64,000 nucleotides of DNA from Flavobacteriales bacterium (GCA_020635395.1 JACJZV010000001.1:647545-711544); one strand, 5' to 3'; positions 1 through 52,101 are shown, counted from the stretch's first letter. Made by a program: numbers and translations. The notes: a model not told the origin generated them from the letters alone.

Positions 1-150
1 AAAAGTAACTCTATTTTTCAACTATTTCAAAAAAGTTGCAATTTTAATCTTCTTATTATCAGCGAGTTAATTGTGTTTTGTTTTTGAGGTAAAAATCTAA
101 AATAGCGTTGAGGGTAGTTGTGCAACAGCTACCCGTGTTAGCAGTAGCAA
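1..150. repeat. Cassette-associated repeat A1. It is about 98% identical to 44683..44832 and lies immediately 3' (minus-strand sense) of the beta-lactamase gene
   Basis: Direct comparison of 1..150 with 44683..44832 shows only about 3 mismatches. It carries the internal 10-bp motif GTTGTGCAAC (117..126) and the terminal motifs cagctaccc and gttagcRgtag. Confidence 0.8.
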
Positions 151-153
151 TTC

Positions 154-960
154 TCATCTATCAGTTAGTTTGAGGTCGTTAAGGATTAAATAAACAATGT
201 CTATTCGAGCATTTGCAAAGTCCTTATTGTTTAAGTCAGCCGATTGAATGCAGTTAGCGAAATAATAAACTTTGTCTTTATTCTCAAGATAGCCAACATA
301 CCACCCAATATCTTTATTGTCTTGTCCGCCCCAACCAGTTTTTGCTCTAATTACATAATTCAATGTGTCCTTTGCAATCATTATATTTTTAACAATATCC
401 ATTGAACGCTTTGAAAAGGGAAGTTGGTTGTCGTGAAGTCGTTTTAAAAAGTCAATTTGTTGTTTGGGAGAAACACGAAGTCCACCAGTAAGCCAAAACT
501 TGTCTATGCCACCTGAAGTGTCAACGTTTCCATAGTTTGCTTTATCAAGCCAGTATTTCATTTGTTGTCCGCCAACTCGTTTTGCAAGTTCTTGATAATA
601 CCAAACTGTAGAATTTTTGAAAGCGGTCTTTAAGTCGTGGTCGCTATTCCAGTTTGGGTTTTGTCGGGTTACACTGTCCCAAGGAATTACAAAGTTCTCG
701 TCTTTAATTACTCCTGTCTCAAGTCCGATAAGCGAGTTACAAATTTTATAAGTCGAGGCAGGTGAAAAAGTTTGCTCGAATTGGTCTTTGTTGTAAAAAA
801 CATATTTGTCGTCTTGTGGGTCGTAAAGAACGAAAGAACCGCCAACATTAAATTGGTCGTAATATTTTTTAAAGTCGTCACGAATTTCTACCACCTGCTT
901 TTGCTTACAAGCTGTTAGTCCGAGAACCATTAAAGTCAAAATTATTATTGTCTTTTTCAC
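154..960 (-). CDS. Class D (OXA-family) beta-lactamase, lipoprotein-type signal peptide
   Basis: The 268-aa product has a lipoprotein-like N-terminus (LTAC). It has the class D active-site motifs STYK (S-x-x-K), STV (S-x-V), YGN and KTGWG plus a downstream W. Likely GTG start. Confidence 0.8.
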   Translation of the reverse strand: MKKTIIILTLMVLGLTACKQKQVVEIRDDFKKYYDQFNVGGSFVLYDPQDDKYVFYNKDQFEQTFSPASTYKICNSLIGLETGVIKDENFVIPWDSVTRQNPNWNSDHDLKTAFKNSTVWYYQELAKRVGGQQMKYWLDKANYGNVDTSGGIDKFWLTGGLRVSPKQQIDFLKRLHDNQLPFSKRSMDIVKNIMIAKDTLNYVIRAKTGWGGQDNKDIGWYVGYLENKDKVYYFANCIQSADLNNKDFANARIDIVYLILNDLKLTDR

Positions 961-964
961 TGTC

Positions 965-1045
965 GTTATATTGTTACTGCTAACGTTTTGCAGCTACCCG
1001 AAGGGCGGGGCTTTCGGAGCACTAATCTGTCAAGCTACGATAATG
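965..1045. repeat. Cassette-associated repeat C1 (module family C)
   Basis: The modules ttacYgcYaacgKtt, gcagctaccc and gggcgggKtttcggagcac are shared with 45270..45340 and 42605..42660. On the minus strand it reads GGGTAGCTG..GTTAGCAGTAA about 15 bp before the beta-lactamase start. Confidence 0.6.
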
Positions 1046-1050
1046 TTTAT

Positions 1051-2844
1051 TTATTGTACAACTGTTCCAATTCCCACTTCAGCCCCCGCTTTTGGCAAGG
1101 TGCTGTTAGCACCCGTTTTTATTTCTGTTAATTTGTCAACCAGGTCTTTCGGGAACATATTTAGTTTTCTTAATGCTTTAAACAAGGTCTTAAAATTAAT
1201 AATTGTGCTTGTGAAAATATTATTATAAACTTCATTCAATATCGTTTTTCCTCGTCTGTTCAATAACCATTTCGGATATAATAAAATTGTCTCACCAACA
1301 AATGACACTTCAATTCTTTCTGTTTCAGTCGCTGGGTCGAAATCAGGAAAGTATTTTTTTAATTCAGGTTCTACTATAGATATTATAGCGTCTGCGACTT
1401 TCTGTAAAGTTTCAGCAGGAAGCGATTTTAATTTGTATTCTTCGCCTACTGATAGCTTCAAACCCTCAACAGCTGGATTCTTTTCCTTGTCAATTAGTGC
1501 GGCATAAACAAGGATTGGATCAGCTAAATAATTTTCAATACTATATCTGTCTATTTTATAGACACCGTCAGATACGGCATTACCAGTGTCTGCGTCAATT
1601 AGTCCTTGAACAATATTTACTAATCCTGATTCTTGTAGCTTATTTACCCAATTCTGAACAACATCTTTGCCGCCTGATTTGTCTTTCGTAGATGCTGGAA
1701 TAAATACTAATGGAATATTTGCATCGATTTGATTTTCTGTTGTAAGTTGATTGTAAGCAAATGAATAAAATGAAACATCATCGTTGTCTTCAACAAGAAA
1801 ATACTTAGTTCCTTCACCTACATAAACCAATCCTGCTGTCAAGAGTGAAACAGAATGATTTTTTGAAGGGGATTTTCTAATTCGAGGTTCAACTCGTGAC
1901 ATTTCATAAATTGAATTATTGGGTGCAAGAATAACTGTTGAAGGAGAGTGGGTGGTCATTATTACTTGGACTCCAAATTTGTCAACAAGAACATTTTTGA
2001 TAACATTTAAAAACTGTTGAGACATTGATGGGTGCAGATGAGCATCAGGTTCGTCAAGTAATAATAATTTTGGAAATACTTTTTTTTCTTGGGAGTTGTA
2101 CAAATAAAACACTAATGAAATAAGTACTTTTTCTCCTGAAGACAAGTCATTAAAATTTATTTCCTCGTTTAATATTTGATGAGTAAGTTTTAATTGAAAG
2201 CCATCTCGAATTCCATTGTTTGAAGGGTCATTAACATCAAATGGTAATTTTGATTCTTTAATAATTTCTTTTAAAACAACCCACGGTTTTTCCCCGATTG
2301 ATTTTTTTATATTTTCTTCCGTTTCGTGTTTAGCCTGCAGTTCTATTTCGGATAACCTGTAATTATAAAAAACTTCACCAATCTTTTGACTTAGTTGGCT
2401 TTCCTGCTCAATTAATATCTCAGGAAAATATTCGTAAAATTCTTCTTTCGTTATGACATTGAATTGTTTCCCTGTTTTCTTAATAATTTCTTGGCATGCC
2501 CAAAACATTTTAATTTGTCCTTCTTGGTTTCTTTGATAGTTGCCACCTTTAAAGTTATTATAGTAACCATCCATCTGTTGCTGAATGGTAGAAAGATTAA
2601 CGTGTCCCGTATTTTGTAGTTGCCACTCTCCCTTAAGAAAAGTAACCTCATCTGGTTTGATGGATTTCCCTGTTATAACAACTCTTTCGGTAGTTCCTTG
2701 TTTATTGATAATCGTATTATGAATTAAATCTAATAGTTGCGATTTACCAGTTCCATTAGGTCCAGTTATTACAACGAAGTCAGGAATGTCTGTCCAGTTA
2801 AAACTTGTAATTGATTTGTATTTTTTGTCGAATTTTATTTCCAT
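1051..2844 (-). CDS. OLD-family ATP-dependent endonuclease (ABC-type ATPase plus C-terminal Toprim). Candidate anti-phage defence gene
   Basis: Walker A GPNGTGKS, Walker B LLLLDEPDAHLHP, a C-terminal Toprim-like LVEDNDD and IDADTG, and single-gene organisation. The start is trimmed from 2901 to the internal Met (MEIKFDK) at 2844. Confidence 0.7.
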   Translation of the reverse strand: MEIKFDKKYKSITSFNWTDIPDFVVITGPNGTGKSQLLDLIHNTIINKQGTTERVVITGKSIKPDEVTFLKGEWQLQNTGHVNLSTIQQQMDGYYNNFKGGNYQRNQEGQIKMFWACQEIIKKTGKQFNVITKEEFYEYFPEILIEQESQLSQKIGEVFYNYRLSEIELQAKHETEENIKKSIGEKPWVVLKEIIKESKLPFDVNDPSNNGIRDGFQLKLTHQILNEEINFNDLSSGEKVLISLVFYLYNSQEKKVFPKLLLLDEPDAHLHPSMSQQFLNVIKNVLVDKFGVQVIMTTHSPSTVILAPNNSIYEMSRVEPRIRKSPSKNHSVSLLTAGLVYVGEGTKYFLVEDNDDVSFYSFAYNQLTTENQIDANIPLVFIPASTKDKSGGKDVVQNWVNKLQESGLVNIVQGLIDADTGNAVSDGVYKIDRYSIENYLADPILVYAALIDKEKNPAVEGLKLSVGEEYKLKSLPAETLQKVADAIISIVEPELKKYFPDFDPATETERIEVSFVGETILLYPKWLLNRRGKTILNEVYNNIFTSTIINFKTLFKALRKLNMFPKDLVDKLTEIKTGANSTLPKAGAEVGIGTVVQ

Positions 2845-2861
2845 AGTTGTCTGTCTTAAAA

Positions 2862-2930
2862 TGGCAGCTAACATCCCTATATGCCCAATACAATAGTCCA
2901 ATTGTGCATATTTCCATTATCTATGCAACA
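2862..2930 (-). promoter_or_regulatory. Conserved array-head element H1. It is about 80% identical to 51812..51880 and placed about -18 to -86 relative to the first gene of array 1
   Basis: The blocks tagataatggaaatatgc, attgtattgggcatata and ggatgtta are shared with H2 at the same distance from the start codon of the first gene of array 2. It contains GTTAGCTGCC. Confidence 0.5.
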
Positions 2931-3326
2931 ATACATGCGACGCTGAAGATGTGGCTTCACCGCCAAACTCACACGGTCATGAGTTGTCTCATTCATCTGT
3001 CAAAAATATCTTTTTTCATAATAAATCCAAGCCTCTCCTTAATGACTTGTTGGTGGGTATTGCTAATTTTTTAAAGTGATGGTATAAAATTCCAATTTAC
3101 CCAACTCTATAAAGTCAATCGCACAAATCTTGATAAAGATTAAACGCTTTAAAATCAGCACACTAAATCCGTTATACCCATTTTCAAACGTTTTCAAGTG
3201 TTTTTATACGTATCTAAATGTTTTAAAAACCGATGGCACAAAATACCGCCCCAATCTTTGCAGTGTCGGAAATGGTTAAAACCCCACACCGACTTTTTTA
3301 AAGTAACATATTAATTTTTTAAACAC

Positions 3327-33017: not shown

Positions 33018-35111
33018 ATGAGAAAGATACTTTACATTATTGGAATTATTTGGCTTTTGTTTTTGAGCAATACCCAAGCCAACGCACAATGCGATGCACA
33101 GTTTTCCTGGTATATGACCAGTGTTTCCGGACTGTTTTATTTTCAGGATTCTTCCGGAAATCAATATACACAGGAACATTGGGATTTTGGCGATGGAACT
33201 CGGGATTCCACATTTGGTTTTGCACAGCATAAATACAATAGTGCCGGAACCTATAAGGTTTGCAGAATTGTTATGGATTCAAAAGTGCCATGTGCAGATA
33301 CATTTTGTGTTACCGTAGTTTATACCACGGGCTGCGATGCACATTTTTCGAGTTATATAAAAGGAGACTCGGTTTATTTTGTAGATAATTCAACCAAGGC
33401 CGCCACCCATATATGGACTTTTGGCGATGGGACAACTTCCACAGCCAAAAATCCGATACACAAGTATAGTTCTTCATTGAGCTGGGCAACGGTTTGTTTA
33501 CAAATTTATGATAGCACAGCTACGTGTTCAGATCAATATTGTGTAACTATTGCCCTACCAAATGGCAACAATTGCAATGCGGATTTCGATACTTATGTAA
33601 GCGGAAGCTCGGTTAGCTTTTACCCCAAAGATTATAGCAGTAAAATATACCGTTGGACCTTTGGCGATGGTGATACATCAAGCAGTTTTAGCCCTTATCA
33701 TAAATATCAAACAACATCTATTCAGACTTTTAATGTTTGCCATTATGTGAGTGATTCAAGTATGGCTTGCAGTGATTCCGTTTGCAAAACGGTTACGGTT
33801 TATCCAGATACGTGCGATGTGAGTTTTACGCTCTCTCAATATAAAAATGTAGTTGCATTAAAAGCAAATTCAAATGTGGCAACCACTCATCATTATTGGA
33901 CTTTTGGTGATGGGCATTCGGTTAGTGGTGGTGGGGGCAGTGTTACTTACACCTATCAACCCGTCACAACAGCCACCACATATCAGGTGTGTCATTATAT
34001 AATGGATTCTACGTTGGGTTGCAATGATACTTCTTGTCAATACATAATAGTATATCCAGATAGTTGCAATGCAGCGTTTAGTACGCAAATTAGCGGAAAT
34101 TCGGTTCGATTTTCGGGAGTATATCAGGCCAATAGGTTTTACTATTGGACTTTTGGAGACGGAGCAACCAGCACAGGCAATAACTCGGTAAGTATTGTAC
34201 ACACTTATTCAAAACAGGGCACATATAATGCATGCCTCACCGTTTGGGATACTACTGGATGTCAAAGTACCTATTGCGATAGTATCGTGGTTGGAGGCTC
34301 AGCTACTGGTTGTCAGGCCGATTTCAGCTTTTATGTGATGGATACCATTGCCCATTTCAAAAACATGTCCTCGTCAAACACCACTCAATATTTGTGGAGT
34401 TTTGGTGATGGAACTTCTTCGACACAAAAAAATCCGAGTCATCATTACACCTATTTTGGAACATATACTGTTTGCCTTTATGCTTACGATAGTGGATGCG
34501 TAGATTCCATCTGCAAGTCGGTAACTATTGACAGTATGAAAAGTTGCACGGCATTTTTTAGAGTAGCGGTTGATACCAATACAAAGTATAAGTTGTACTT
34601 AATTAATGGCTCATCCAACAAATCATCACATCAATATTATTGGAATTTTGGAGATGGAGGCACATCAACCCAACGCAATCCAAGCCACCATTACTCAACC
34701 TTTGGTAGATACAATGTGTGTCTTACGGTAATAGATTCTTCAGCCAATTGTTATGATACTTATTGCGACACGTTAGGGCTTGATTCGTTGGGAAGGTTAC
34801 TAAAGGTTGATGGTTTTGATATTGAAGTTCTTGACCAACTGGGTGTTGGCAATAAATTGAATAAAAATAATTTTCGCATCTATCCAAACCCAACCTCAGG
34901 GCTGGTTAATATTGAGTTGGTTCAAGGAAAATCAGAAGGGGCAATTGTAAGAATTTATTCAATGAACGGCATTTTGATTTCTGAGGTTGAAATGGAAGCG
35001 GATGGAAAAGCGAATTTGGACATAGCCCATCAGCCCGATGGACTGTATTTAATTGAAATATCGGGCAAGCAAGTAATGGTAAGAGAGAAATTTATCAAAT
35101 TGACTAATTAA
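33018..35111 (+). CDS. Cell-surface protein with about 9 tandem PKD-like repeats and a T9SS C-terminal sorting domain
   Basis: Repeated unit WTFGDG.TS...NP.H.Y...G.Y.VC....D...C.D..C. The C-terminus FRIYPNPTSGLVNIEL...GLYLIEI is a T9SS CTD. Start trimmed to Met10. Confidence 0.75.
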   Translation: MRKILYIIGIIWLLFLSNTQANAQCDAQFSWYMTSVSGLFYFQDSSGNQYTQEHWDFGDGTRDSTFGFAQHKYNSAGTYKVCRIVMDSKVPCADTFCVTVVYTTGCDAHFSSYIKGDSVYFVDNSTKAATHIWTFGDGTTSTAKNPIHKYSSSLSWATVCLQIYDSTATCSDQYCVTIALPNGNNCNADFDTYVSGSSVSFYPKDYSSKIYRWTFGDGDTSSSFSPYHKYQTTSIQTFNVCHYVSDSSMACSDSVCKTVTVYPDTCDVSFTLSQYKNVVALKANSNVATTHHYWTFGDGHSVSGGGGSVTYTYQPVTTATTYQVCHYIMDSTLGCNDTSCQYIIVYPDSCNAAFSTQISGNSVRFSGVYQANRFYYWTFGDGATSTGNNSVSIVHTYSKQGTYNACLTVWDTTGCQSTYCDSIVVGGSATGCQADFSFYVMDTIAHFKNMSSSNTTQYLWSFGDGTSSTQKNPSHHYTYFGTYTVCLYAYDSGCVDSICKSVTIDSMKSCTAFFRVAVDTNTKYKLYLINGSSNKSSHQYYWNFGDGGTSTQRNPSHHYSTFGRYNVCLTVIDSSANCYDTYCDTLGLDSLGRLLKVDGFDIEVLDQLGVGNKLNKNNFRIYPNPTSGLVNIELVQGKSEGAIVRIYSMNGILISEVEMEADGKANLDIAHQPDGLYLIEISGKQVMVREKFIKLTN

Positions 35112-41851: not shown

Positions 41852-41977
41852 ATTATTGTATTTTAAAATTAACTATTTACACCAATTTGCCATTCGCAAT
41901 ATAGTTTTATTAAGTCACTCGATTTCAAATTTTTTTTGGTAGATTTTAAGATAACTGTTCTGCTCAGGTTGCAAGCT

Positions 41978-42020
41978 CCTCCTTATGGGGAGAGCCGCCT
42001 ACTCGTTTGGCAGCTACCCT
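41978..42020. repeat. Module W/Y copy (cctccttatggggagagccgcctactcg..cagctaccc) at the distal end of array 2
   Basis: The same 25-bp W module terminates the B elements at 46264, 47782, 48583 and 49305. Confidence 0.6.
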
Positions 42021-42601
42021 TCTTTTATCATTTTATAGATATTCGATTGATTAAACTGTTCTCTCCATTTCTCAATTCTATCAGTCTCACTTTCAATTTT
42101 TTGAATCTGAAATGATTCCACAAAACCAATTTTTAACCGAATTTCTTTTCCACCTTCATCTAATGGTATTTGAACAAAACAATCATGCTCATCACAAGTA
42201 ATTTTTGACTTAATTAAAGCTGAATCAATTTTGTTTGACAAGAATTCTTTTCCAAATTCCATTTGATAGGATAGCACTTTTAACGAATCTATTGTATTGT
42301 TACTGGTGTATATTGAATCTAATGATTGACGAGACAATTTGTGTTCTCCTAATCGTTTGTATATCTCGTATCTTAACAGGTTTGCCTTTTCATTTACTTG
42401 CATAACACAAAGGCCACAGGTGCAATAACCACACGTTTCAGCTTCCGTTATTTGCTTCAATGCTTTTTCGTTTTTTCCCTTAGTAACGTTTTTCTCTGCT
42501 TTATCAAGTAACATAAATGAATTCTGACCATAGCTCAACTGATAAAATACTATGAGTGTCACTATGGCGAAGGATCTGAGATATTTTACTTCTATTTTCA
42601 T
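42014..42601 (-). CDS. Hypothetical secreted protein (cassette-like array gene)
   Basis: Signal peptide. No recognised domain. Confidence 0.4.
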   Translation of the reverse strand: MKIEVKYLRSFAIVTLIVFYQLSYGQNSFMLLDKAEKNVTKGKNEKALKQITEAETCGYCTCGLCVMQVNEKANLLRYEIYKRLGEHKLSRQSLDSIYTSNNTIDSLKVLSYQMEFGKEFLSNKIDSALIKSKITCDEHDCFVQIPLDEGGKEIRLKIGFVESFQIQKIESETDRIEKWREQFNQSNIYKMIKEG

Positions 42602-42604
42602 TTT

Positions 42605-42660
42605 TTTAATTTCTAAGACGTTTTAGGGCTTTGTGTTCAGGCAGTTTCGCGGGCCATTGG
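42605..42660. repeat. Module C copy (cgttttagggctttgtgttcaggcagtttcgcggg)
   Basis: About 75% identical to 45293..45328 and 985..1022. Confidence 0.5.
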
Positions 42661-42697
42661 GGTGATTTAACCAGTGAACCACGGTAGGTGTTGTGAG

Positions 42698-43438
42698 TTA
42701 TTTTAACTTCTTAAATACATAATCCCAGTCTTTATAAGTCCAATCATTTTCACCGATAAATTCATGGTCCGCACATTCATAAATTTCATTTACATTGAAA
42801 ATCTGATTATTTTCTCTTGCTTCATCCCAAAGGTTCATTAGCCCAGATTTATCCTTTATTTTTTCAAACTTATTTTTAACATTTTTAAAACAAACTAAAT
42901 CTCCAAACTCTGAATTTCCACATGGATGATAATTTGAGTATTTACAGGATATACAGGTTTTAATTTCATAATTTTCAGGGAGCGTCTTTTGCATATCAAT
43001 CATAAGATATTCAAAATTATACATATTCCTTGCAAATAAATTCTCTCCAAAAACAGTCTTAAAAGTTGCTTCTTTTATAACCAACTCAACACCGTAATCT
43101 TTTTTATTTTCAATACTTTTTTCCAATTTTAAAATCAGTTCGCCATTAAAATTATTCTTTAAGTGGCCAATGATTATAGGTATCTCAATTTCTAATTCAA
43201 AATTTGTTAACTCATTGTAAGAATTAAATTCAAAATTACCCTTAGTTTCTTTTGTTTCTAATGACTCAAACTCACGTCCTTCAAAGATTGTATTCCTTAA
43301 TTCTAATCTTAAATTGCTTCCATGCGAAATAACCTCAGATTTGAGCGAACCGAATTTGTCAGTATATTTTACGAGATATTTTTTTAAACACATGCTCTTA
43401 CTCTTTATTTTTCTGGCATTAACTATACTGTAAAACAC
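42698..43438 (-). CDS. Hypothetical protein, AT-rich (cassette-like array gene)
   Basis: ORF only. Confidence 0.4.
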   Translation of the reverse strand: MFYSIVNARKIKSKSMCLKKYLVKYTDKFGSLKSEVISHGSNLRLELRNTIFEGREFESLETKETKGNFEFNSYNELTNFELEIEIPIIIGHLKNNFNGELILKLEKSIENKKDYGVELVIKEATFKTVFGENLFARNMYNFEYLMIDMQKTLPENYEIKTCISCKYSNYHPCGNSEFGDLVCFKNVKNKFEKIKDKSGLMNLWDEARENNQIFNVNEIYECADHEFIGENDWTYKDWDYVFKKLK

Positions 43439-43689
43439 GGAGAAGCCAAATCATCTAAACGTACTTTATTTAAAATTCTGTACGAATTTCTCCTCTTCAG
43501 TGCATGGTGTAAATATAGTTCGAAAGATAAGAAATTGATTGTCAATTTGATATAAATTATTTCCGTCTGGAACAGGTGCATCTAAATCGGGGAAGCCACT
43601 ATTCGGCGACGTCGCCAACATTGCTATTATTATCACAAAAGGTCAAGTTAGCACGTGTCCTCCAGTGGTGGAAACAGCCGTATTCTATA

Positions 43690-43775
43690 CCCCAATCCCG
43701 ATAGCTATCGGGATTGGGGTGAGAGGTACACTCTCATCATTTATGGGGAGAGCCGCCTACTTGATTATGTGCTGT
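43690..43775. repeat. Composite repeat made of a perfect 30-bp palindrome V (ccccaatcccgatagctatcgggattgggg), then a truncated B 3' half, then the W module
   Basis: The palindrome was read directly. The gaggtacactctcatcatttatggggagagccgcctacttg part matches the B-element 3' end. Confidence 0.7.
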
Positions 43776-43782
43776 TATTTTT

Positions 43783-44511
43783 TTATTCATATGGTTTCCA
43801 GTTTTTGTCTTTGGGTTCCTTGTAATTTGCAGGTCTTACATTTCGCTTCATTTCTTCATCACAAGCTCCGAACTCAATAAAGTTTTTTTGTGCCTGTCTT
43901 AACGAAATTGTGTTTGCTCCACCTTCATAATATGGGTCGTCAAGTTGGATTGGGTCATCTTCCCAAAAGCATACAGGGCAAATATCATAAGTTCCATTTG
44001 GTTTCTCCGTAAACGTTTTATGTCCACAACAAGGACAAGCAAATTTTGAATTAACTGTCAATATTAGTAATGCCTTTTCCAATGCATCTTTGTCAAAACC
44101 GATTGATGGTCTTGTTGCAACCCAGCGTTCTTTTATATACTCTGGCAATGCGTTTATTGATTGGTCATCATCAATAATAACATAGTTCTGTCCCTCTCCT
44201 TTTTTTTCAACCCATTCTTTAATTTCGGTTCCTCTGTCTAATAATTGACTTATTTCTGTTTTGTTATTTAGTTTTGATATTGTTTCAAAATTCAATCCTC
44301 TTAATCTAAAAATCTCTTTCCATTTAGTTTCGTCATAATTTATTCTATGAGTTGTTGTCAAAACTATCGAAGCATTTGTCCTTTTGTGAAGGATTAATAA
44401 GTTTTCAAGTGCTTTTTTATTTAGTTTCATAAATCCGTCAGAATATATTTCTGCCTGTCGCCAAGTAGGTGTCGTTTCCAAAACTCCGTCTATGTCTAAA
44501 AGTATTGTCAT
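43783..44511 (-). CDS. HAD-like hydrolase domain fused to a cysteine-rich CPCC domain
   Basis: N-terminal DxD HAD motif (LLDIDGVL) and a C-terminal CPCCGHKTF...CPVCFWEDD cysteine-rich CPCC-type module. Confidence 0.5.
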   Translation of the reverse strand: MTILLDIDGVLETTPTWRQAEIYSDGFMKLNKKALENLLILHKRTNASIVLTTTHRINYDETKWKEIFRLRGLNFETISKLNNKTEISQLLDRGTEIKEWVEKKGEGQNYVIIDDDQSINALPEYIKERWVATRPSIGFDKDALEKALLILTVNSKFACPCCGHKTFTEKPNGTYDICPVCFWEDDPIQLDDPYYEGGANTISLRQAQKNFIEFGACDEEMKRNVRPANYKEPKDKNWKPYE

Positions 44512-44682
44512 TCTGTTTTGTGTCGGTCTTTATAATAGCACATAACTTTTTGCCGCTTGCCGCAGTGGGGGATTTCGAAGCACTTCACTTTCAACCAAGC
44601 ACAAATGTTGATAGAATCACAGCACTTGATTTAACCACGTCAACCCCCATTGCGGCAAACGACTGTGCCTGTTGCACAACTC
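44512..44682. repeat. ORF-less structured spacer element with a 12-bp inverted repeat (ccgcaGtggggg / cccccaTtgcgg) and module Z (atttcgaagcac)
   Basis: Read directly. No credible ORF. It lies between repeat A2 and the CPCC gene. Confidence 0.5.
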
Positions 44683-44832
44683 AAAAGTAACTCTATTTTT
44701 CAACTATTTCAAAAAAGTTGCAATTTTAATCTTCTTATTACCAGCGAGTTAATTGTGTTTTGTTTTTGAGGTAAAAATCTAAAATAGCGTTGAGGGTAGT
44801 TGTGCAACAGCTACCCGTGTTAGCGGTAGTGT
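44683..44832. repeat. Cassette-associated repeat A2, about 98% identical to 1..150
   Basis: Direct comparison. It is bounded by the inverted 10-mers GTTGCACAAC (44671..44680) and GTTGTGCAAC (44799..44808). Confidence 0.85.
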
Positions 44833-45267
44833 TTACGTCATGTGTTTAAGGAAAAGTGTAATGGTTTCATATGTCAATTCGTTATCCTTGATTATATAGT
44901 TGTCAAACCAGTCGTTGTTACTTAGTGTTTGTGCTACCAACCAAGATTCTTTGCCAAGATATAAAAATCGTTTGCCGCCAACTTGTATTAACCATGAACC
45001 AAAATCCTTCTCGTGATAAGATTCTTTTGTAATCACCTTGTCTGTTAGTCGTAATAAGCAAAAGTCGAAAAGAAATTTATTCCAATTGCTTGAAACTTTT
45101 CTTTCAATGTCAAACGCATAACTTATAGCCTTGTCAATCGTATTATCAGTTGCATTGTCAACCAATTCTGCTTTTCGCCCAAATTTGTCAGTAAGAGTAA
45201 CTTTAAAAACTCCGTTCGAAATTTCGTCAATTTTAGTTGTCCAACCTGGTAGTGATTTTGTGTTCAT
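44833..45267 (-). CDS. Hypothetical protein (cassette-like array gene)
   Basis: ORF only. Confidence 0.4.
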   Translation of the reverse strand: MNTKSLPGWTTKIDEISNGVFKVTLTDKFGRKAELVDNATDNTIDKAISYAFDIERKVSSNWNKFLFDFCLLRLTDKVITKESYHEKDFGSWLIQVGGKRFLYLGKESWLVAQTLSNNDWFDNYIIKDNELTYETITLFLKHMT

Positions 45268-45269
45268 AG

Positions 45270-45400
45270 TGTCTGTCTAACATTACCGCCAACGGTTTCG
45301 GGCTTTGCGTTCGGGCGGGTTTCGGAGCACAAAGTTTCAATTTATTACTAAAGTTTATTAGAAGCACAAAGCTCCATCCCGATAGCTATCGGGATTGCAC
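45270..45400. repeat. Composite repeat made of module C (ttaccgccaacggtttcgggctttgcgttcgggcgggtttcggagcac) plus palindrome V copy (atcccgatagctatcgggatt)
   Basis: Related to 965..1045 and 43690..43719. Confidence 0.6.
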
Positions 45401-45440
45401 GTCAACCCGCATGACGCAACCCGTGTTATAGCCAGTTTTT

Positions 45441-45797
45441 CTATTCATTGGTCAACATTACTATTGTCTTATTTTTTGTCTCTGCACATTTATTTTCTGT
45501 CGGCATATTAGTTTTTATTTTCAATATGTCGTCATTTCTTTTAATGCTAAAGTTCATAACATTATAGATTGCGTCATTTAAGTAATATTCAAATAATTTG
45601 GTCGTGTCATTTCCATAATTTGCAAAAAATTCAAATCTGTAATTGTCAATCTCAGTCTGATAAACGCTATAAAAAATGTGTTCATTAGGTTCGTTTGAAA
45701 TTGTTCTCGTCACAATGAGGTTGTTCTGTTCAAAATAGGAACAGCCAACTATGAATAGTAAAAATATCAATGCATATTTTGGTATTTTTTTATTCAT
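45441..45797 (-). CDS. Hypothetical lipoprotein (cassette-like array gene)
   Basis: Signal peptide with the lipobox LFIVGCS. Confidence 0.4.
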   Translation of the reverse strand: MNKKIPKYALIFLLFIVGCSYFEQNNLIVTRTISNEPNEHIFYSVYQTEIDNYRFEFFANYGNDTTKLFEYYLNDAIYNVMNFSIKRNDDILKIKTNMPTENKCAETKNKTIVMLTNE

Positions 45798-46047
45798 ATA
45801 CTTTCGCTCCTTTAAAAATGTCTACAAATGTTGACCAGTCTGGTTTGTCCGCATTTACATTTAGTTTCATATTGTCGTAATAGCCTTGAATGTCTTCAGT
45901 AAACGCACCCAACGCTTCCAGAAAATCGGTCAAAGTTTTGTTTTCCCAATTTTCAGGATTGGCTAAAAAGTCTTTGCGTAATAAGCCAAGAAACTTAATG
46001 AAATTTTGTCTGTCCGTTACTTTAAAGTCGTTAAGTGTGTCGTTCAT
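45790..46047 (-). CDS. Hypothetical small protein (85 aa). It overlaps the next gene by 8 bp with no intervening repeat
   Basis: ORF only. It forms a two-gene unit with 45441..45797. Confidence 0.35.
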   Translation of the reverse strand: MNDTLNDFKVTDRQNFIKFLGLLRKDFLANPENWENKTLTDFLEALGAFTEDIQGYYDNMKLNVNADKPDWSTFVDIFKGAKVYE

Positions 46048-46165
46048 AAAATTGGCTATAACGTGCCAGCACTAAATGTTGTGCCACTTTTTTCACTATT
46101 TGTTGTCAGTATAAATATACAATTTTATTTCTAATTCCCTGTCTGTCAGGCATAACATTTAGTGC

Positions 46166-46292
46166 ACGTGTGTGCCGCCAATGGCAAACACCCTCCAAGT
46201 TTAGTTGAAAGGAGAGTGATAACCAATAGTTATGTTGGATTAGCTAATGAGGTGTACACTCCTCATTTATGGGGAGTTCCGCCTACTCGATT
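46166..46292. repeat. B-family structured repeat copy B1
   Basis: gtgtgccgccaatggcaaacaccctcc..aggagagtgataaccaatagttatgttggattagctaatgaggtgtacactcctcatttatggggag..cgcctactcg. Internal hairpins are ataac/gttat, ttagctaa and aatgagg/cctcatt. Confidence 0.8.
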
Positions 46293-46298
46293 ATGGGC

Positions 46299-47513
46299 TT
46301 ACAATTCAATTTTCCAAAGACCATTTTTGCCTCCGACAATTACGCTTCCCTTAGGATCGATTGCAAGGTAAAAAGCACTTTCAATGCCAGCAAATAAGTC
46401 CTTTGACCTAAAAGTATAATATTCCCCATTACTTGTCCGAATACCGAAGTCTGGATAACCCATCCAACTTGTTGTATACCAAATATTAGATTTTTCATCA
46501 ATAACTATAGAATTTGGTAATGGAATTACCGTTCCACAGTCTGGTTTTAATTTTTCATTGAAAGATTCAGATTGAATATCCAACCCTAATCCAATAAATG
46601 ATTTACTAAACCCAGGGTTTTGACCATAATGTGTACTATTATATAGATTAATACAAGGGATATTTATAACAGAATTTTTTTCGAAAACACTTCCAAATTG
46701 CTGAATACTGTCAAATGTGAAAGTTTTCCACTCATTATTTTTAATTCTAAGTAATTCAGCTTGTGAGGCTGCATTTATTCCATTACCTTTAGTTGCATAG
46801 AATCTGACCCAAACGGAGTTATCACTGGTTATAGTTATTCCATCAAGTCTTTTACCTACTGGTAGTCCATTATTTTCTGTGAATGTTAAAACATCGGAAG
46901 CTGAAATTAAACTCAATCCATTTTCCTCCCAGTTGGATCCAGGCTGAGGCTGGGTCGTATGACCTACCCAAACATTGTCAGATTGGTCAACTGCAACATA
47001 TTTCGTATGGTTATTTAGGAGACCTTCATTTTTTGAAAAGAGTTGCATTGAATTCCAGTCATATCTGCACAAACCCTTGGGAGTAGCCATCCATAATCGT
47101 CCTTTGCTGTCTTCATCAACTCCTGTAATAGTGTCTGAAGGTAATCCATCTTCTTTGCCAATATGTAACCATTTTTGTTGGGCAAAATCGAAATAATCTG
47201 CACCTTTATTCGTTCCAACCAGAATTGCCCCTGATACCTTGGAAACTGACAGATGATTAATTCGCCCGTTTGCTAAATTATGGGTTAAGTTTTCTTTTTT
47301 TTCAAAAATAGAGAAGTCGTTAAAGTTTTTACTATTCCAGCAGCTATCCCAAGTAAATTCGGACACGACAACTAGAGGTTTAGATGGTTCCTCTTTTTCT
47401 TTACAAGATAATGCCAAAATAGAAAAAGAGATAACTAAGAATGTAATTGTTTTATTCATATTTCTGTTTTTAGTTCTGACTAACGCAAAATTATGTTTCT
47501 GATTACCAAGCAA
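46299..47513 (-). CDS. Lipoprotein with two-component-regulator-propeller (Reg_prop-like) beta-propeller repeats
   Basis: Lipoprotein signal and repeated ..DG..W.GT..GL..YD blades. Confidence 0.45.
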   Translation of the reverse strand: MLGNQKHNFALVRTKNRNMNKTITFLVISFSILALSCKEKEEPSKPLVVVSEFTWDSCWNSKNFNDFSIFEKKENLTHNLANGRINHLSVSKVSGAILVGTNKGADYFDFAQQKWLHIGKEDGLPSDTITGVDEDSKGRLWMATPKGLCRYDWNSMQLFSKNEGLLNNHTKYVAVDQSDNVWVGHTTQPQPGSNWEENGLSLISASDVLTFTENNGLPVGKRLDGITITSDNSVWVRFYATKGNGINAASQAELLRIKNNEWKTFTFDSIQQFGSVFEKNSVINIPCINLYNSTHYGQNPGFSKSFIGLGLDIQSESFNEKLKPDCGTVIPLPNSIVIDEKSNIWYTTSWMGYPDFGIRTSNGEYYTFRSKDLFAGIESAFYLAIDPKGSVIVGGKNGLWKIEL

Positions 47514-47682
47514 TCACAAAGTATCATTTTTTACCTCTTTTTCAGAGGTTTTTTCGACTTCGTTGGCCTCCAAAATTAATAAAGAAAATTCAGAAATGAG
47601 AAATTGAATTAGACTCATTTCGGAATTTTTATTTTTGGATTGCCCATAACGGTGAGTGTACGCGTAGTTTGCACGTTTAGGG

Positions 47683-47816
47683 CTACACCGTGTGTGTGTG
47701 CCGCCAATGGCAAACACCCTCCAGAAAGGAGAGTGATAACCAATAGTTATGTTGGATTAGCTAATGAGGTGTACACTCCTCATTTATGGGGAGAGTCGCC
47801 TACTCGTTTGTGTGTA
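47683..47816. repeat. B-family repeat copy B2. It has an 11-bp deletion relative to B1 and is flanked by the imperfect inverted repeat ctacaccgtgtg / tgtgtgtag
   Basis: Direct comparison. Its 3' flank encodes the last 4 codons of the upstream ORF. Confidence 0.8.
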
Positions 47817-48414
47817 GTTTTTGTTCTTTATATACTTTCGTTATTTCGCTTTTTAATTCATTGTACCTTTTAGGTTCGGTCAGTTTTTTCAGTGAATTAA
47901 TTGTGATTGAGCTCTGACTTCTTTCATAGTTGTCAAGTCGATATGTTGGTAGAACATAAAAATCCCATTGCTCCATTTTTAAAGGGTCAATTGTTTTTTG
48001 GTCTTTGTGTTTTAAATGACAGAACACATAAAGGTCAGCGTGTCTTTTGGGTTCTCCACGTTGCATATTTGTTTCTGCATCCCAATATCTTGCAGGTTTA
48101 ATTGAAAATGAAATAGTCGAAAAGTTCTTTTGATTCCAACTTTGAATATAAGCGGCAGATTTGACTTCTATTTTTATTCCGTCGATAGTTGTCAAGTCAT
48201 ATGCATCCCATTCATCTCTTAAATTTTCAGGATTTAGTCCAACTGCTGTCCCGACGATAAACTCTGCAAATCTTCCGCGAGTTGCATTGCTCAAAATGTC
48301 AGAAACGCTCCAACGCCAAAAGTCCAATAGGTTAAAATTTGTTTCCTTACCATTGTCGGTAAGGGTTTCATTTCCGTTTTTGGGGCTTGCTTTTATTTCT
48401 TTGAGTTCGTTCAT
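47800..48414 (-). CDS. Hypothetical protein with a PD-(D/E)xK-like nuclease motif
   Basis: D..(x)n..IEVKS arrangement (DAYDLTTIDGIKIEVKSAAY). Weak. Confidence 0.35.
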   Translation of the reverse strand: MNELKEIKASPKNGNETLTDNGKETNFNLLDFWRWSVSDILSNATRGRFAEFIVGTAVGLNPENLRDEWDAYDLTTIDGIKIEVKSAAYIQSWNQKNFSTISFSIKPARYWDAETNMQRGEPKRHADLYVFCHLKHKDQKTIDPLKMEQWDFYVLPTYRLDNYERSQSSITINSLKKLTEPKRYNELKSEITKVYKEQKLHTNE

Positions 48415-48482
48415 TTCTAATTACACACGACGGTTCGTATATGGTGTCGTAGCATCCCGCAGGGTGCTATGTATTATATACC

Positions 48483-48618
48483 ATGTGTGTGCCGCAAATG
48501 GCAAACACTCTCCAAATTTAGCTGAAAGGAGGGTGATAACCAATAGTTATATCGGATTAGTTGATGAGGTGCACACTCCTCATTCGTGGCGAGAGCCGCC
48601 TAATGGATTGTGTGTATT
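48483..48618. repeat. B-family repeat copy B3, the most diverged
   Basis: About 85% identical to B1. Confidence 0.7.
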
Positions 48619-49047
48619 ATCTGTTAAAATTCTGTTTTTTGGAATCAGCTGATGCATTACGAGTAAAAATAATACACCTTTAGTAAAACCATTTGGAATA
48701 AACTTTACAAACGAGTCGTAAATATCAAATTGAAATCCTAATCCAGCTCCTATTATTAAAGAAATTATTATGGAAGAAATTAAGCAAACAATGCCATAAA
48801 TGCTACCAAATATTAAAGCTTTTGATAGCGATATTCCGAGATTATCTTTTGAAATATTCCTTACTAACAAATGGGTTACGAAAGCGGTAATTATTAAAAA
48901 TAAAAACTCTAAAACCATCTCATAGATGAAAAAATAGATATTGAATATTCTAGTCATTTCAAATTCGGTAAATATTAATTTTCTAATCAAATCTATTCCA
49001 ATTGAGATTAATCCAAAAAACAATATTGCTCTAAAAACCTTTGTCAT
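48580..49047 (-). CDS. Small integral membrane protein (4 TM). Its last 11 codons are encoded by the B3/W repeat
   Basis: Hydrophobic profile. The C-terminus THNPLGGSRHE is read through the repeat. Confidence 0.4.
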   Translation of the reverse strand: MTKVFRAILFFGLISIGIDLIRKLIFTEFEMTRIFNIYFFIYEMVLEFLFLIITAFVTHLLVRNISKDNLGISLSKALIFGSIYGIVCLISSIIISLIIGAGLGFQFDIYDSFVKFIPNGFTKGVLFLLVMHQLIPKNRILTDNTHNPLGGSRHE

Positions 49048-49211
49048 TCTTTACAGTTTATCTTAGTGTTATGCATACGCTGCGATTACGCATAACGGTA
49101 TAGGGTAAGAAACGTAGGGCATTTCGAAGCAATTTCCTGTTCACCGAAACGGAACTTGCTAAGAGCCCAAAACTTGCGGAAACCACTGCCCGCCCTATGT
49201 TTTATACCCAT

Positions 49212-49345
49212 TGTGCGTGCCGCCAATGGTAAACGCCCTCCAAATTTAGTTGAAAGGAAAGTGATAACCAATAGTTATGTTGGAATAGCTAAATAGGTAC
49301 ACTCTCCTCATTTATGGGGAGAGCCGCCTACTCGATTAGGAGCAT
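49212..49345. repeat. B-family repeat copy B4
   Basis: About 90% identical to B1. Confidence 0.8.
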
Positions 49346-49350
49346 CATAA

Positions 49351-49854
49351 TTATGAAATCCAAATCATTTCATTGCTTACAACTCGCCATTTTCCGAGGC
49401 GTTTTTTTAATTCAACAACATTTCCAGACGAGCTTAAGTTACCTTCGTAATATCCACAATAAACACTGGCTTTGTTTCCAGACACAATTACTTTTGAAAT
49501 ATTGAATGAAAGAAAATCAATTTCACTTTTTTCTTCGTCTGTCATATTATTGAACATTGAAATGTCCTTTACTTTGGGAGAATTCCTTTTTAGCTTATCC
49601 AATACAAATGGTAAGGATTGATTGAGAGAATCGTCTAAACTTAGAAAATAGTAGGTGGCTTTTTCTTTGGTTGCAGATGCGTTTTCTTTAAATAATGCTT
49701 TGAATGCAGCAACTTCAATTTTAACCAATGTCGTCTTTGGGATATTGTTATTCTGCAAACCCTCTTTTATATTTCCTGTCTTTTGGCTGAATACTGTGCC
49801 AGAAAGAAGTAAGAGAAGTGTCGGAAACACAAGGACTTTGAGTATTAAATTCAT
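49351..49854 (-). CDS. Hypothetical secreted protein (cassette-like array gene)
   Basis: Signal peptide. Confidence 0.4.
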   Translation of the reverse strand: MNLILKVLVFPTLLLLLSGTVFSQKTGNIKEGLQNNNIPKTTLVKIEVAAFKALFKENASATKEKATYYFLSLDDSLNQSLPFVLDKLKRNSPKVKDISMFNNMTDEEKSEIDFLSFNISKVIVSGNKASVYCGYYEGNLSSSGNVVELKKRLGKWRVVSNEMIWIS

Positions 49855-50063
49855 TTGATTGCCATTTAAATTATTTCTGTCGCATTCTAGAAAGTCAAAT
49901 TCTATCTGGTGTTGGTGTAATTGCTCCTAACGTATTCGTGTATGAGTAGTGGCGGATTTTAACCCACTAAACTATCAGATAACATCGACCTTTGATTTAT
50001 AATTTTATGTTTCTATTAAGCACCAAACCCGCTATTGCAAATGTGCTGTTAGCGGTAGTTTTT

Positions 50064-51143
50064 CTATTCTGTAAGTTCATAAACAGATATTGTTTTGTTG
50101 TCTGCCGTTAAGAAACAACCTGTCCCAACGCTGTATTCGTTTACTTTCAAAATTTCGTCTTTAAAAGCGATTTGTCCATCCGATGAAATTACCGAAAAGC
50201 CACCTTCGTCAGAAACTGTGATGAACGAATTCATTGCTCTATTGAAATACATTTTCGAACTAAGGATATTTTTGTCAACAATCTGAATTTTCTTACCTAT
50301 CTCAACATTGTCCCCGCTGATTTTGAGAAAATGAATTTCACAAGGAGAGTCTGCTGTTGAATTTTCATCTCCTTCGGTAAATGGATTATACGCAATAGCA
50401 ATAGTATCATTGTCAATCCAACATGTCGCTCTGTTTTCATGTTCCCAACCACCTATTCTCAAATCTGATATTCTATTACTTGTGATAAAATTTTCAATAT
50501 CATAGACATTATAGCAATCGTATGAACCCCAAGCCCAACCTGCACTCAAAAATTTCTTCTGATTAGGCGAAATAAAAAGTTTGCCAAAAAAATAGTCGTA
50601 TGGTCTCGGCCAAGGTAATTTGTTGTCCTCAGAATGTTTTTTATAAAAATCAATGTGTCTTTCTTCCGCCCCTTCTTCAATCAAGGATTTTGAAGCAGTC
50701 AGGATTTGTCTGGTGTCAAGATTCATGATTTGAATATGATTCCATGCTTCACCAAAAATTAAATGGGGCACTCTTTCTTGATTTTTATAAAGTACTATTG
50801 GATAAGTTGAAATGTCAGCGTGATAGTCTTCTCTCCACAAGTGCAAGGCATGATACTTGTTGGGATAATGAACAAAACCATGTCTTTTGAAGTCATTAAC
50901 TACAACTACAATTTCGTCCATTGTGTAAATTGAAGTCTTTGCTGTTAAGTCAAAACCTCCGTCTGAATATCCAAAATTGCTTTTTACTGAAAATAAATGC
51001 TTTCCCTTTTTGTCGTCCAAATTAAACCGAATGACATTACCAGAACTCATCAACATAACAACTTCATTTGACTTTGATAAAGTCGCAGTCATAATAGTTT
51101 CGTCAGTGTCAAAAGTGATGTCGTAAATTTTATTTGTTTTCAT
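50064..51143 (-). CDS. Hypothetical protein, beta-rich and possibly beta-propeller-like (cassette-like array gene)
   Basis: ORF only. Confidence 0.4.
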   Translation of the reverse strand: MKTNKIYDITFDTDETIMTATLSKSNEVVMLMSSGNVIRFNLDDKKGKHLFSVKSNFGYSDGGFDLTAKTSIYTMDEIVVVVNDFKRHGFVHYPNKYHALHLWREDYHADISTYPIVLYKNQERVPHLIFGEAWNHIQIMNLDTRQILTASKSLIEEGAEERHIDFYKKHSEDNKLPWPRPYDYFFGKLFISPNQKKFLSAGWAWGSYDCYNVYDIENFITSNRISDLRIGGWEHENRATCWIDNDTIAIAYNPFTEGDENSTADSPCEIHFLKISGDNVEIGKKIQIVDKNILSSKMYFNRAMNSFITVSDEGGFSVISSDGQIAFKDEILKVNEYSVGTGCFLTADNKTISVYELTE

Positions 51144-51317
51144 TCTAATCGTCTATTCGCTTGGTAGCTTTAAAATTACCGCTAACGGTTAGTATATGAA
51201 AAGTAGGCGATTTAGAAGCTCTAATTTTTCGGTTAAACACAAATTTTAATGCGAGCCATAACCTATGAATTTATCGCTGTTTCGCCTATTTTTTATATAC
51301 AGTGTTGTAGTGCGTTT

Positions 51318-51803
51318 TTATTCATTATTAGTTGTCGTAAACACTTGATAGAAGTATGACAGGTTATCAGGCTCTCCATTTGCAAATCGTTTAAAAGCTT
51401 TGGCAATCGGGTCGCAAACAGTTCCGTTTGGTAGTTTAATTACAATTGGCATCATATTTACTCCTTCTGGAAGGTTCGCGTCTTCTTGCTTAATCCACCG
51501 TCCATTTGCATTCTCAATCATTACTTGTCCAGAATAGCAACCAGCAACAAAAATTGTCTCAGCAAAATCGTCAACGTTCCATTCTTTACTAAAGTTGTCC
51601 AGAAATTGGTCAACAAAATTCAGCGAGTCAACTGAATAATCTAACTCAATTCCTTCGTTTTCTTTAACAGCTCCACTAAAAAACTCACTCAACCCTTTTC
51701 CATTTTCAGGGTTTGGTTCTAATTGTAAGTTTAGTCCGCGGTTTGGAAAGACTTGTTTTGGCTTTTCTTCTTTCTTTCCGAAAAGGTTTTTAAATATGCT
51801 CAT
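51318..51803 (-). CDS. Hypothetical protein. It is the first gene of array 2
   Basis: ORF only. Confidence 0.4.
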   Translation of the reverse strand: MSIFKNLFGKKEEKPKQVFPNRGLNLQLEPNPENGKGLSEFFSGAVKENEGIELDYSVDSLNFVDQFLDNFSKEWNVDDFAETIFVAGCYSGQVMIENANGRWIKQEDANLPEGVNMMPIVIKLPNGTVCDPIAKAFKRFANGEPDNLSYFYQVFTTTNNE

Positions 51804-51811
51804 CTGTTTTT

Positions 51812-51880
51812 TTTAATGCCCTATAACATCCGTATATGCCCAATACAATGTTCCTATTACGCATATTTCCATTATCTACG
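51812..51880 (-). promoter_or_regulatory. Conserved array-head element H2, about 80% identical to 2862..2930
   Basis: See H1. Same spacing from the first start codon. Confidence 0.5.
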
Positions 51881-52101
51881 AAACCAAAACAGGGTTTGAA
51901 ATTTAATGTATCCGTTTTCATTTTTTTTGGCTTCGTTCCATTCAGTCAAATATAGAAACTTTTTTTAGAAATTATCCAAAATGCCAATAGCACCTTGCGG
52001 TTTGTAACAAGGCCAAAGAAAAATGCCATTCTGTCACCATTTTAGGTTAAAAAGTGGTTGGCAAAGTAGTTGATATTGCCCAAACATTAATTCATAATCG
52101 G

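Follow-up and report, generated by a model that had tools for sequence, protein, structure and literature searches.

Two probable arrays of integron-kind gene cassettes in the chromosome of a Flavobacteriales bacterium

What kind of element is a block of 13 open reading frames (ORFs) that lies between housekeeping genes, with every ORF on the same strand and an imperfect hairpin repeat in the intergenic regions? The question is raised by positions 42014-51803 of a 64-kb stretch of a Flavobacteriales genome (GCA_020635395.1, JACJZV010000001.1:647545-711544), the whole of which is referred to here as the window. The block contains 12 ORFs of 85-404 aa and one small ORF, all on the minus strand, and is flanked by grpE/dnaJ at one side and by a DUF2231-like gene, SIMPL and aldehyde dehydrogenase at the other. 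Its GC content is 0.32-0.36, compared to about 0.38-0.44 in the flanks. A reading made earlier from the sequence alone (the original prediction) had correctly described a co-directional minus-strand array between housekeeping flanks, and had proposed, with reservations, either an integron-like cassette array or an immunity island of the kind called rAID (recombinase-associated acquired interbacterial defence). For the present analysis the window was examined together with 6.7 kb to its left (70.6 kb), and statements on what the examined sequence contains refer to this range. The 13 ORFs were found to make up 11 cassettes, and a second array of the same kind was detected at the left end of the window. 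Both are probably chromosomal arrays of integron-kind gene cassettes.

When read in the sense of the ORFs, the intergenic region opens at or just past the stop codon with a box of the ...TAAC type and closes with a box of the GTTA... type, 13-70 nt upstream of the next start codon. An imperfect hairpin lies between the two boxes of each intergenic region, and the functional unit is this box-hairpin-box. The repeats reported earlier were recovered, including four copies of module B, the W motif, the palindromes and the borders of element A. As modules they are present; as the building blocks of the array they gave way to the box-hairpin-box, being pieces of that one architecture. GTT was found in 15 of the 18 5' boxes, and AAC closes the 3' boxes, replaced by AATC in the W-type sites. 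Typical 5' boxes read GTTAGCG, GTTATGC or GTTATAG. The canonical integron core GTTRRRY was matched in full by a single 5' box of the 18 (GTTGGGC), which agrees with the earlier remark that canonical cores were not matched exactly.

The 5' and 3' boxes of one cassette were found to be reverse complements over about 15 nt. With the boxes anchored at the triplet and compared over positions 4-15, 8.2 of 12 were matched in own pairs, compared to 4.5 of 12 in cross pairs (permutation p<=1e-5). The two boxes that flank the same hairpin matched at 4.7 of 12, a complementarity no better than that of random pairs. When the 100 nt upstream of each cassette were locally aligned, without anchoring, to its stop region in reverse complement, the GTT box was the best match in 12 of 19 cassettes, and own pairs again scored above cross pairs (p=9e-5). 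Such own-pair complementarity is the signature expected if the units were cut and rejoined at the triplet. Integron cassettes with a cognate-end signature were reportedly described by Hall and Stokes. Based on the own-end test, O7 with O8, and the small ORF with O6, each form a two-ORF cassette (ORFs as numbered in Table 1); in the latter, the 5' box upstream of the small ORF pairs with the 3' box.

One position of the boxes did not follow this complementarity. Position 11, counted from the G of GTT, was mismatched in 17 of 17 end pairs, representing 14 distinct cassettes from five sources, whereas the other box positions were matched in 12-17 of the 17 pairs. At position 11 the 5' box always carries A, opposed by C in 13 pairs and by A in four; read on the bottom strand, the mismatch is G.T or T.T. 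A fixed mismatch one helical turn from the triplet, found in unrelated cassettes, argues that the boxes physically pair and that a protein reads the structure.

Whole sites, comprising the cores and any A or B inserts, were folded as single-stranded DNA. The bottom strand gave z values of -1.4 to -4.5 in 15 of 16 sites. The stems are up to 19 bp long, start 0-4 nt (mostly 1-3) past AAC and end 0-6 nt (mostly about 5, A-rich) ahead of GTT. Simple site cores measure 53-140 nt, and sites holding A or B measure 181-297 nt. The two arms of a site paired with a score of 16.1, compared to 10.6 for arms combined from different sites (permutation p=5e-5; 16 sites, four sources); the sequence thus changes under a preserved structure. 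A model circle of the O2 cassette, in which its own 3' box, the upstream hairpin and its own 5' box are joined, folded from end to end with -25.7 kcal/mol on the bottom strand (z -5.1) and -22.4 kcal/mol on the top strand, compared to -16.9 for the O2 site as it stands in the array. The better fold of the bottom strand is due to the G.T at position 11.

Repeat finding over the whole window revealed the second array, which runs from position 2929 leftward off the window end. The first array lies where it had been placed (41942..51884); the second, at 1-2929, had been hinted at only by a suggestion to check positions 1..3000. On the minus strand, the leader of array 2 is followed by an ATPase gene, a repeat, the gene of a class D beta-lactamase and element A, and the array extends 5.8 kb beyond the left window end (sequence L007) with six further cassettes, followed by a gene for a cNMP-binding regulator, the source contig being JAWKNP010000003.1 of GCA_041391645.1. 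The leader regions of the two arrays (2860-2929 and 51815-51884) are 83% identical and are both conserved exactly as far as GATG|TTA. Each comprises an ..AAT box, an ATATGC..GCATAT hairpin, a spacer and an end at G|TTA. The leader is a short member of the same site family.

A scan by the leader pattern of the GTDB representative genomes, which do not include the source genome, returned one real solo copy and one chance match (L003). The solo copy, at 2194-2233 of L002 (Bacteroidia metagenome-assembled genome (MAG) M30B35, JAGYJG010000001.1), is a leader hairpin with GTG replacing GTT, without cassettes, and precedes an unrelated 400-aa gene. An empty attachment site and a shared 5' leader element are both conceivable readings.

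Within the examined sequence, the repeats were confined to the two arrays and to the ORF-sense orientation. The 13 top box matches (position weight matrix score >=13.4 bits) were all in the arrays and on the ORF strand. The W motif, present 5-6 times, likewise occurred in the arrays only, its pattern giving four matches at <=3 mismatches compared to none in 100 shuffles. The random scatter in both orientations that the original prediction had named as the mark of a generic repeat family was thus not what was seen in these 70.6 kb.

The same cassette was then found beside other neighbours. Homologues of O10 (HAD_SAK_2 + CPCC) with 78-94% protein identity are present in Sphingobacterium sp. LRF_L2, Flectobacillus, Arcicella, a Bacteroidetes MAG and JGI metagenome contigs. 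All but one stand in co-directional small-gene arrays, the sites of which belong to the same site family; the exception is the Bacteroidetes MAG (L027), where a lone copy adjoins an IS91-family element. In four of these sequences (L017, L020, L022 and L027) the CPCC+HAD cassette is 777-783 nt long, with 81.5-94.5% nucleotide identity to the window copy. Its ends (GTTATGTGCTAT...AACAGCACATAAC) are the same and its neighbours different in five contexts counting the window. One C-type core of the Flavobacteriales MAG, site core 7 in Table 1, shares 91% identity over 114 nt with a Sphingobacterium site, and two sites inside the Sphingobacterium genome are 92% alike, i.e. no closer than the cross-genome pair. 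L001, a 1.3-kb contig originating from the same environment, carries O10 with its upstream hairpin at 99.8% identity to the window, but another ORF and another 3' box precede them and element A is absent. For O9 and O7, exact-protein look-ups led no further than the source genome or short contigs, identical and broken in the repeats.

Some further details of this cassette were recorded. L020 (1250-1280) and L021, two JGI contigs with 99.7% identity, differ by a tandem duplication of 10 nt (AGCACATAAC) placed exactly at the 3' box junction of the CPCC cassette. In L027 (1-3740, MAG GCA_016714615.1), the cassette has a site on each side and adjoins an IS91-family transposase and a tyrosine recombinase, the ensemble being bracketed by 300-nt repeats, as if a rolling-circle element had picked up the cassette. 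This recombinase was considered as the array integrase and rejected: it is paired with the IS91-family transposase, and its family occurs on thousands of 1-5-kb contigs and is therefore a multicopy component of an insertion sequence, which here seems to carry the cassette as a passenger. O10 itself (43783-44511, minus strand) is a 242-aa HAD+CPCC ORF in the window and in the homologues; the annotation of GCA_041391645.1 gives a 92-aa CPCC protein, a discrepancy that likely reflects the start-codon call.

The anatomy described above, with an outer own-end stem, an asymmetric internal loop, an inner stem, a variable loop and AAC/GTT at the junction, is that of integron cassettes. We therefore favour, as the probable explanation, structure-specific site-specific recombination of integron-like cassette sites by a tyrosine recombinase acting in trans. 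The hedged claim of an integron-like array without an integrase in view, perhaps with a site family of its own, is borne out to this extent by the own-end complementarity, the covarying arms, the cassette found in five contexts and the sites that occur in the arrays only and in one orientation. In an excised circle, the cassette's own boxes would meet and pair, lengthening the hairpin to one long folded site whose outer 'R' stem, asymmetric internal loop and inner stem would match an integron attC in geometry. Encoded at another place in the genome, a tyrosine recombinase would read this structure rather than the sequence, cut at the conserved AAC/GTT triplet, and insert, excise and reshuffle cassettes. 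New arrays would be seeded at the conserved leader hairpin, and transcription would start at a promoter located upstream of the leader and, in some sites, at A and B inserts bearing promoters.

Several observations weigh against this explanation. No circular cassette or recombination event was directly observed; these, like the enzyme type, the cleavage at the triplet and the promoter roles, are what we infer. No Phage_integrase domain (PF00589) was found in the 64-kb window, where the earlier reading had also seen no recombinase, or in the adjoining 6.7 kb on the left. The seven arrays examined (both window arrays, L017, L019, L020, L022 and L026) likewise had no recombinase within 10 kb, and the neighbours upstream of the leaders are grpE and ssb. 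The 7-nt consensus RYYYAAC/GTTRRRY is rarely matched past the triplet, with the W-type sites showing AATC and not AAC; composite sites are as long as about 300 nt; and the array sites of Arcicella and Flectobacillus are decayed. A control of the unanchored alignment against 22 non-array genes was only weakly significant (p=0.038), and it is therefore the anchored test that carries weight. The evidence on the crossover also conflicts, the leaders favouring G|TT and L001 favouring AAC|. For the CPCC cassette, the upstream and downstream hairpins have identities at the family background level across contexts. The folds of the model circle say nothing on the crossover side, because the boxes are the same in both models.

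A more specific form of the recombination explanation is possible, and is put forward tentatively. The arrays may represent a Bacteroidota-specific counterpart of the integron without an adjacent IntI, characterized by a 15-bp outer stem, an obligatory mismatch, several leaders, a recombinase in trans and a crossover on the inverse-core side, so that a gene would move with its upstream hairpin and any promoter there. If true, this counterpart could also be the assembly mechanism of rAID/polyimmunity islands.

The first alternative is a classical integron remnant, i.e. a CALIN, a cluster of attC sites without an integron integrase, with true attC sites, IntI elsewhere or lost, crossover at G|TT and a hairpin that belongs to the upstream ORF. 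The AAC/GTT triplets, the imperfect palindrome and the cognate ends match this picture, as do the conservation of both leaders exactly to GATG|TTA and the better bottom-strand fold via the G.T at position 11. CALINs are also often located in genomes without intI (PMC4889954). However, hardly any complete integrons are known from Bacteroidetes genomes: IntegronFinder 2.0 found only In0 elements and one complete integron, in Salinibacter (PMC9024848). The phylum does appear in general integron lists (PMC8618304). Furthermore, the outer stem measures 15 bp, a fixed mismatch included, compared to 7 bp in attC, a hairpin and not attI stands at the array head, the hairpin stays with the downstream ORF in L001, and intI was near none of the seven arrays. 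On balance, a classical remnant is considered unlikely.

The cargo bears on the second alternative. In array 2, the ORF at 154-960 (minus strand) encodes a class D (OXA-type) beta-lactamase, with a score of 272.9 bits compared to the NCBIfam cutoff of 250 and without assignment to a named OXA family. The ORF at 1051-2844 (minus strand) encodes a 597-aa fused ATPase-Toprim protein whose best match was PADLOC AriAB (5.7e-32; PARIS-like, OLD family), which makes it a likely single-gene anti-phage system. Further cargo includes TspO, an XAC2610-related protein, a T4 endonuclease IV-like protein, a Reg_prop propeller lipoprotein, DUF6278, DUF7660, DUF6304 and the CPCC+HAD protein, and several cassette proteins had no family match. 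Such a mix is typically that of sedentary integrons. Searches of Pfam, NCBIfam and PADLOC matched no cassette protein to a named immunity family (Imm/SUKH).

That the arrays are relatives of the Bacteroidales rAID-1/polyimmunity islands, in which a XerD-like recombinase, now lost or distant, builds an array of orphan immunity genes, is improbable in view of this cargo. rAID-1 was defined by a 5' XerD-like recombinase, immunity cargo and Bacteroidales hosts (Ross et al. 2019, 10.1101/471110), the thresholds being a co-oriented XerD-like recombinase at least 44% identical to BF9343_RS08045 and at least two co-directional genes with GC <=41%. The 13 co-directional ORFs, at GC 0.32-0.36, fall below that GC limit, the host phylum is the same, and one cassette is XAC2610-related. 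The defining 5' recombinase, however, is absent from all arrays seen, no cassette matches a named immunity family, among the cargo are a beta-lactamase, an anti-phage ATPase and TspO, and the host is a Flavobacteriales MAG and not a member of the Bacteroidales. The immunity-island half of the original prediction was accordingly set aside.

The inserts in the sites were analysed separately. Element A is bounded by GTTGCACAAC/GTTGTGCAAC and has 13-nt perfect terminal inverted repeats. It is present in three copies (44665-44810, 1-147 and L007 about 5000-5250), of which the two in the window, 44.7 kb apart, are 99% identical; two of the three have flanking duplications of 4-5 nt (ACGG(G), ATCG(G)). 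Element A always lies within the 5' arm of a C-type site, and its removal restores a site like that at 45294-45424. Judged by sequence features of this kind, it may be read as an insertion of ~150 nt resembling a miniature inverted-repeat transposable element (MITE). The seven copies of B have a mean identity of 76% and always lie between the 3' box and the second hairpin. The B consensus was folded on both strands and showed 0-1 compensatory pairs, no covariation and no end-to-end pairing, so that B is a conserved sequence and not an end-to-end hairpin. As a structured RNA or DNA, B was rejected on the 0-1 compensatory pairs of either strand. As an attC it was also rejected, since its 5' end has no partner and its 3' end resembles a 5' box with ATT for GTT but breaks the position-11 rule. 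The proposal that modules A and B were themselves recombination sites was thus not sustained, A being MITE-like and B a putatively promoter-bearing insert. A scan of JGI metagenomes with the most conserved block of B returned only chance matches in coding regions. Chimeric attC sites in cassette arrays have been described (PMC4889954, Cury et al. 2016).

The Bacteroidota promoter consensus TTG-N18-22-TAnnTTTG was present in ORF sense in all three copies of A (consensus TTTG-N20-TACTTTTG), in five of the seven copies of B and upstream of the array-2 leader. A TAnnTTTG -7 box, TATATTTG, was found upstream of the array-1 leader. Inside the arrays, which account for 27% of the sequence, lay 11 of the 17 minus-strand matches to the consensus. 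A promoter function is predicted on this basis for A, B and the leaders. The core of the palindrome at 43690-43719 is repeated at 45376-45395 (20 nt), in the loop of site core 7, where comparison with the Sphingobacterium copies of the site shows it as a clean insertion; this palindrome may be a second small mobile element.

An ordinary operon-like cluster without mobility, its intergenic regions colonized by repeats of the repetitive extragenic palindromic (REP) or MITE type, is highly improbable: element A is MITE-like (terminal inverted repeats, short flanking duplication, 99% identical copies), B is a conserved repeat without covariation and metagenome assemblies break at the repeats, but dispersed repeats do not explain boxes that are cassette-specific yet complementary or the same cassette in different neighbourhoods with sharp ends, and no copies were found beyond the arrays in 70.6 kb. 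Very little credence was likewise given to RNA-level elements, in which the boxes would pair in a polycistronic transcript like rRNA processing stems and the hairpins would be terminators or stabilizers. It is true that boxes stand on both sides of each ORF on the transcribed strand, that RNA pairing survives the changes (A-U to G-U, C-G to U-G) between the two leader hairpins, and that the solo leader lies in the 5' region of the unrelated L002 gene; but position 11 is an A.C or A.A mismatch on the sense strand, with wobble on the antisense strand only, Rfam scans at gathering and permissive thresholds gave no credible family and a tRNA scan gave none, and the new neighbours of the same cassette and the conserved AAC/GTT are left unexplained.

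The features of both arrays are listed in Table 1. In cassette 6, the small ORF (47514-47650, minus strand) encodes about 30-67 aa, depending on the start codon chosen. An internal GCGTTAGTC in this cassette resembles a 5' box and has no cognate partner. Elsewhere in the window (33400-34700, plus strand), direct repeats of ~250 nt encode the PKD-domain repeats of a Por_Secre_tail (type IX secretion system) protein and are ordinary.

Table 1. Positions of the features of the two candidate cassette arrays in the window
Feature	Position	Strand	Remarks
Array 1	41942..51884	-	Leader site, 11 cassettes/13 ORFs, terminal site
Array-1 leader ('head') site	51827..51884	-	Short hairpin ATATGC..GCATAT, ending GGATG|TTA
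Cassette 1 (O1, 161 aa)	51304..51827	-	5' box GTTATAGGGCATTAA, 3' box AAACGCACTACAAC
Site core 1	51187..51303	-	19-bp imperfect hairpin GTATAT..AAATAGGCGA / TCGCCTACTTT..ATATAC; begins 3 nt past AAC, stops 5 nt ahead of GTT
Cassette 2 (O2, 359 aa)	50048..51186	-	Boxes GTTAGCGGTAATTTT / AAAACTACCGCTAAC, complementary 14/15
Cassette 3 (O3, 167 aa)	49335..49931	-	
Composite site	49097..49334	-	B module (49195-49348), then second hairpin, then 5' box GTTATGC
Cassette 4 (O4, 155 aa)	48607..49096	-	Membrane protein; stop codon within W hairpin
Cassette 5 (O5, 204 aa)	47806..48431	-	Phage_T4_End_IV-like
Cassette 6 (small ORF + O6)	46290..47650	-	O6: 386-aa Reg_prop propeller lipoprotein
Cassette 7 (O7, O8)	45425..46062	-	Two genes; O7 DUF7660; boxes complementary 14/15
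Site core 7	45294..45424	-	C-type
Cassette 8 (O9, 144 aa)	44819..45293	-	
Element A	44665..44810	-	MITE-like
Hairpin upstream of O10	44547..44664	-	
Cassette 9 (O10)	43764..44546	-	HAD_SAK_2 + CPCC
Perfect palindrome, 30 nt	43690..43719	-	Inside long degenerate site after O10
Cassette 10 (O11)	42690..43438	-	DUF6304; 5' boundary degenerate
Cassette 11 (O12, 195 aa)	42005..42619	-	Boxes match poorly
Array-1 terminal short site	41942..42004	-	W hairpin, then GTTATCT
B module, ~154 nt	46150-46303, 47667-47820, 48467-48620, 49195-49348	-	Four window copies; three more in L007
Array-2 leader site	2872..2929	-	
Array 2 cassette 1	1105..2872	-	Fused ATPase-Toprim; 3' box inside ORF
Array 2 cassette 2	137..984	-	Class D beta-lactamase; boxes complementary 14/15
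Next array-2 site, start	1..136	-	Element A copy

Next to integrons, the textbook system of gene capture, a structure-coded family of cassette sites common to Flavobacteriales, Sphingobacteriales and uncultured relatives would amount to a second solution to this task. The recombination explanation would also account for the movement of accessory genes between Bacteroidota classes, e.g. the class D beta-lactamase and the PARIS-like defence gene. It supplies a concrete, testable site anatomy for the biogenesis of rAID/polyimmunity arrays, and the invariant mismatch at position 11 is a direct target for recombination assays. Literature searches returned no description of this site family.

The arrays can be compared with four known systems. 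The pdif (Xer) modules of Acinetobacter plasmids have 28-bp duplex sites (XerC-6 bp-XerD, with 11-bp arms) that are shared by neighbouring modules. Judged by description only, the arrays resemble them in that genes including blaOXA lie between inverted half-sites and neighbouring modules abut; they differ in that the junction boxes are cassette-specific and lie 53-300 nt apart across a hairpin. The ORF-less promoter cassettes of integrons (PMC6557892) have their likeness in A and B, which contain no ORF and place a sense promoter consensus between cassettes. Unlike such cassettes, A has transposon-like terminal repeats and flanking duplications, and B has no cognate box pair.

With rAID-1 the arrays share a Bacteroidota host, co-directional short genes of low GC, repetitive integron-like intergenic sequences and strain-to-strain variability. 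They differ in having no 5' XerD-like recombinase, no recognizable immunity cargo and hosts among the Flavobacteriales and Sphingobacteriales, and the anatomy of rAID-1 sites has not been described at this level. Polyimmunity loci adjoining XerC/D recombinases were noted in 2012 (PMC3482391), and the assembly mechanism of rAID was still called open by a 2025 preprint.

The closest comparison is with integrons and CALINs. A complete integron has its integrase, a tyrosine recombinase with the IntI-specific insertion, beside the array; a CALIN by definition lacks one and is called from two or more attC sites. The attC site has a 7-bp R box, a length of roughly 57-141 nt, the consensus RYYYAAC/GTTRRRY and a crossover at G|TT. 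The sites described here depart from it in their outer stem of ~15 bp with the position-11 mismatch, in not following the 7-nt consensus and in their lengths of 53-140 nt, or up to about 300 nt with inserts. The arrays depart from the integron in having a hairpin site at the head instead of attI and intI, in occurring twice in one 64-kb stretch and in a crossover that may be on the inverse-core side. In common with integrons and CALINs, they consist of co-oriented cassettes, mostly without promoters, separated by a folded imperfect-palindrome site whose base is formed by AAC...GTT. The inverse core complements the core found at the 5' end of its own cassette, and the structure is kept while the sequence varies. 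The cargo of resistance, defence and unknown genes, together with ORF-less or putatively promoter-bearing units, completes the likeness.

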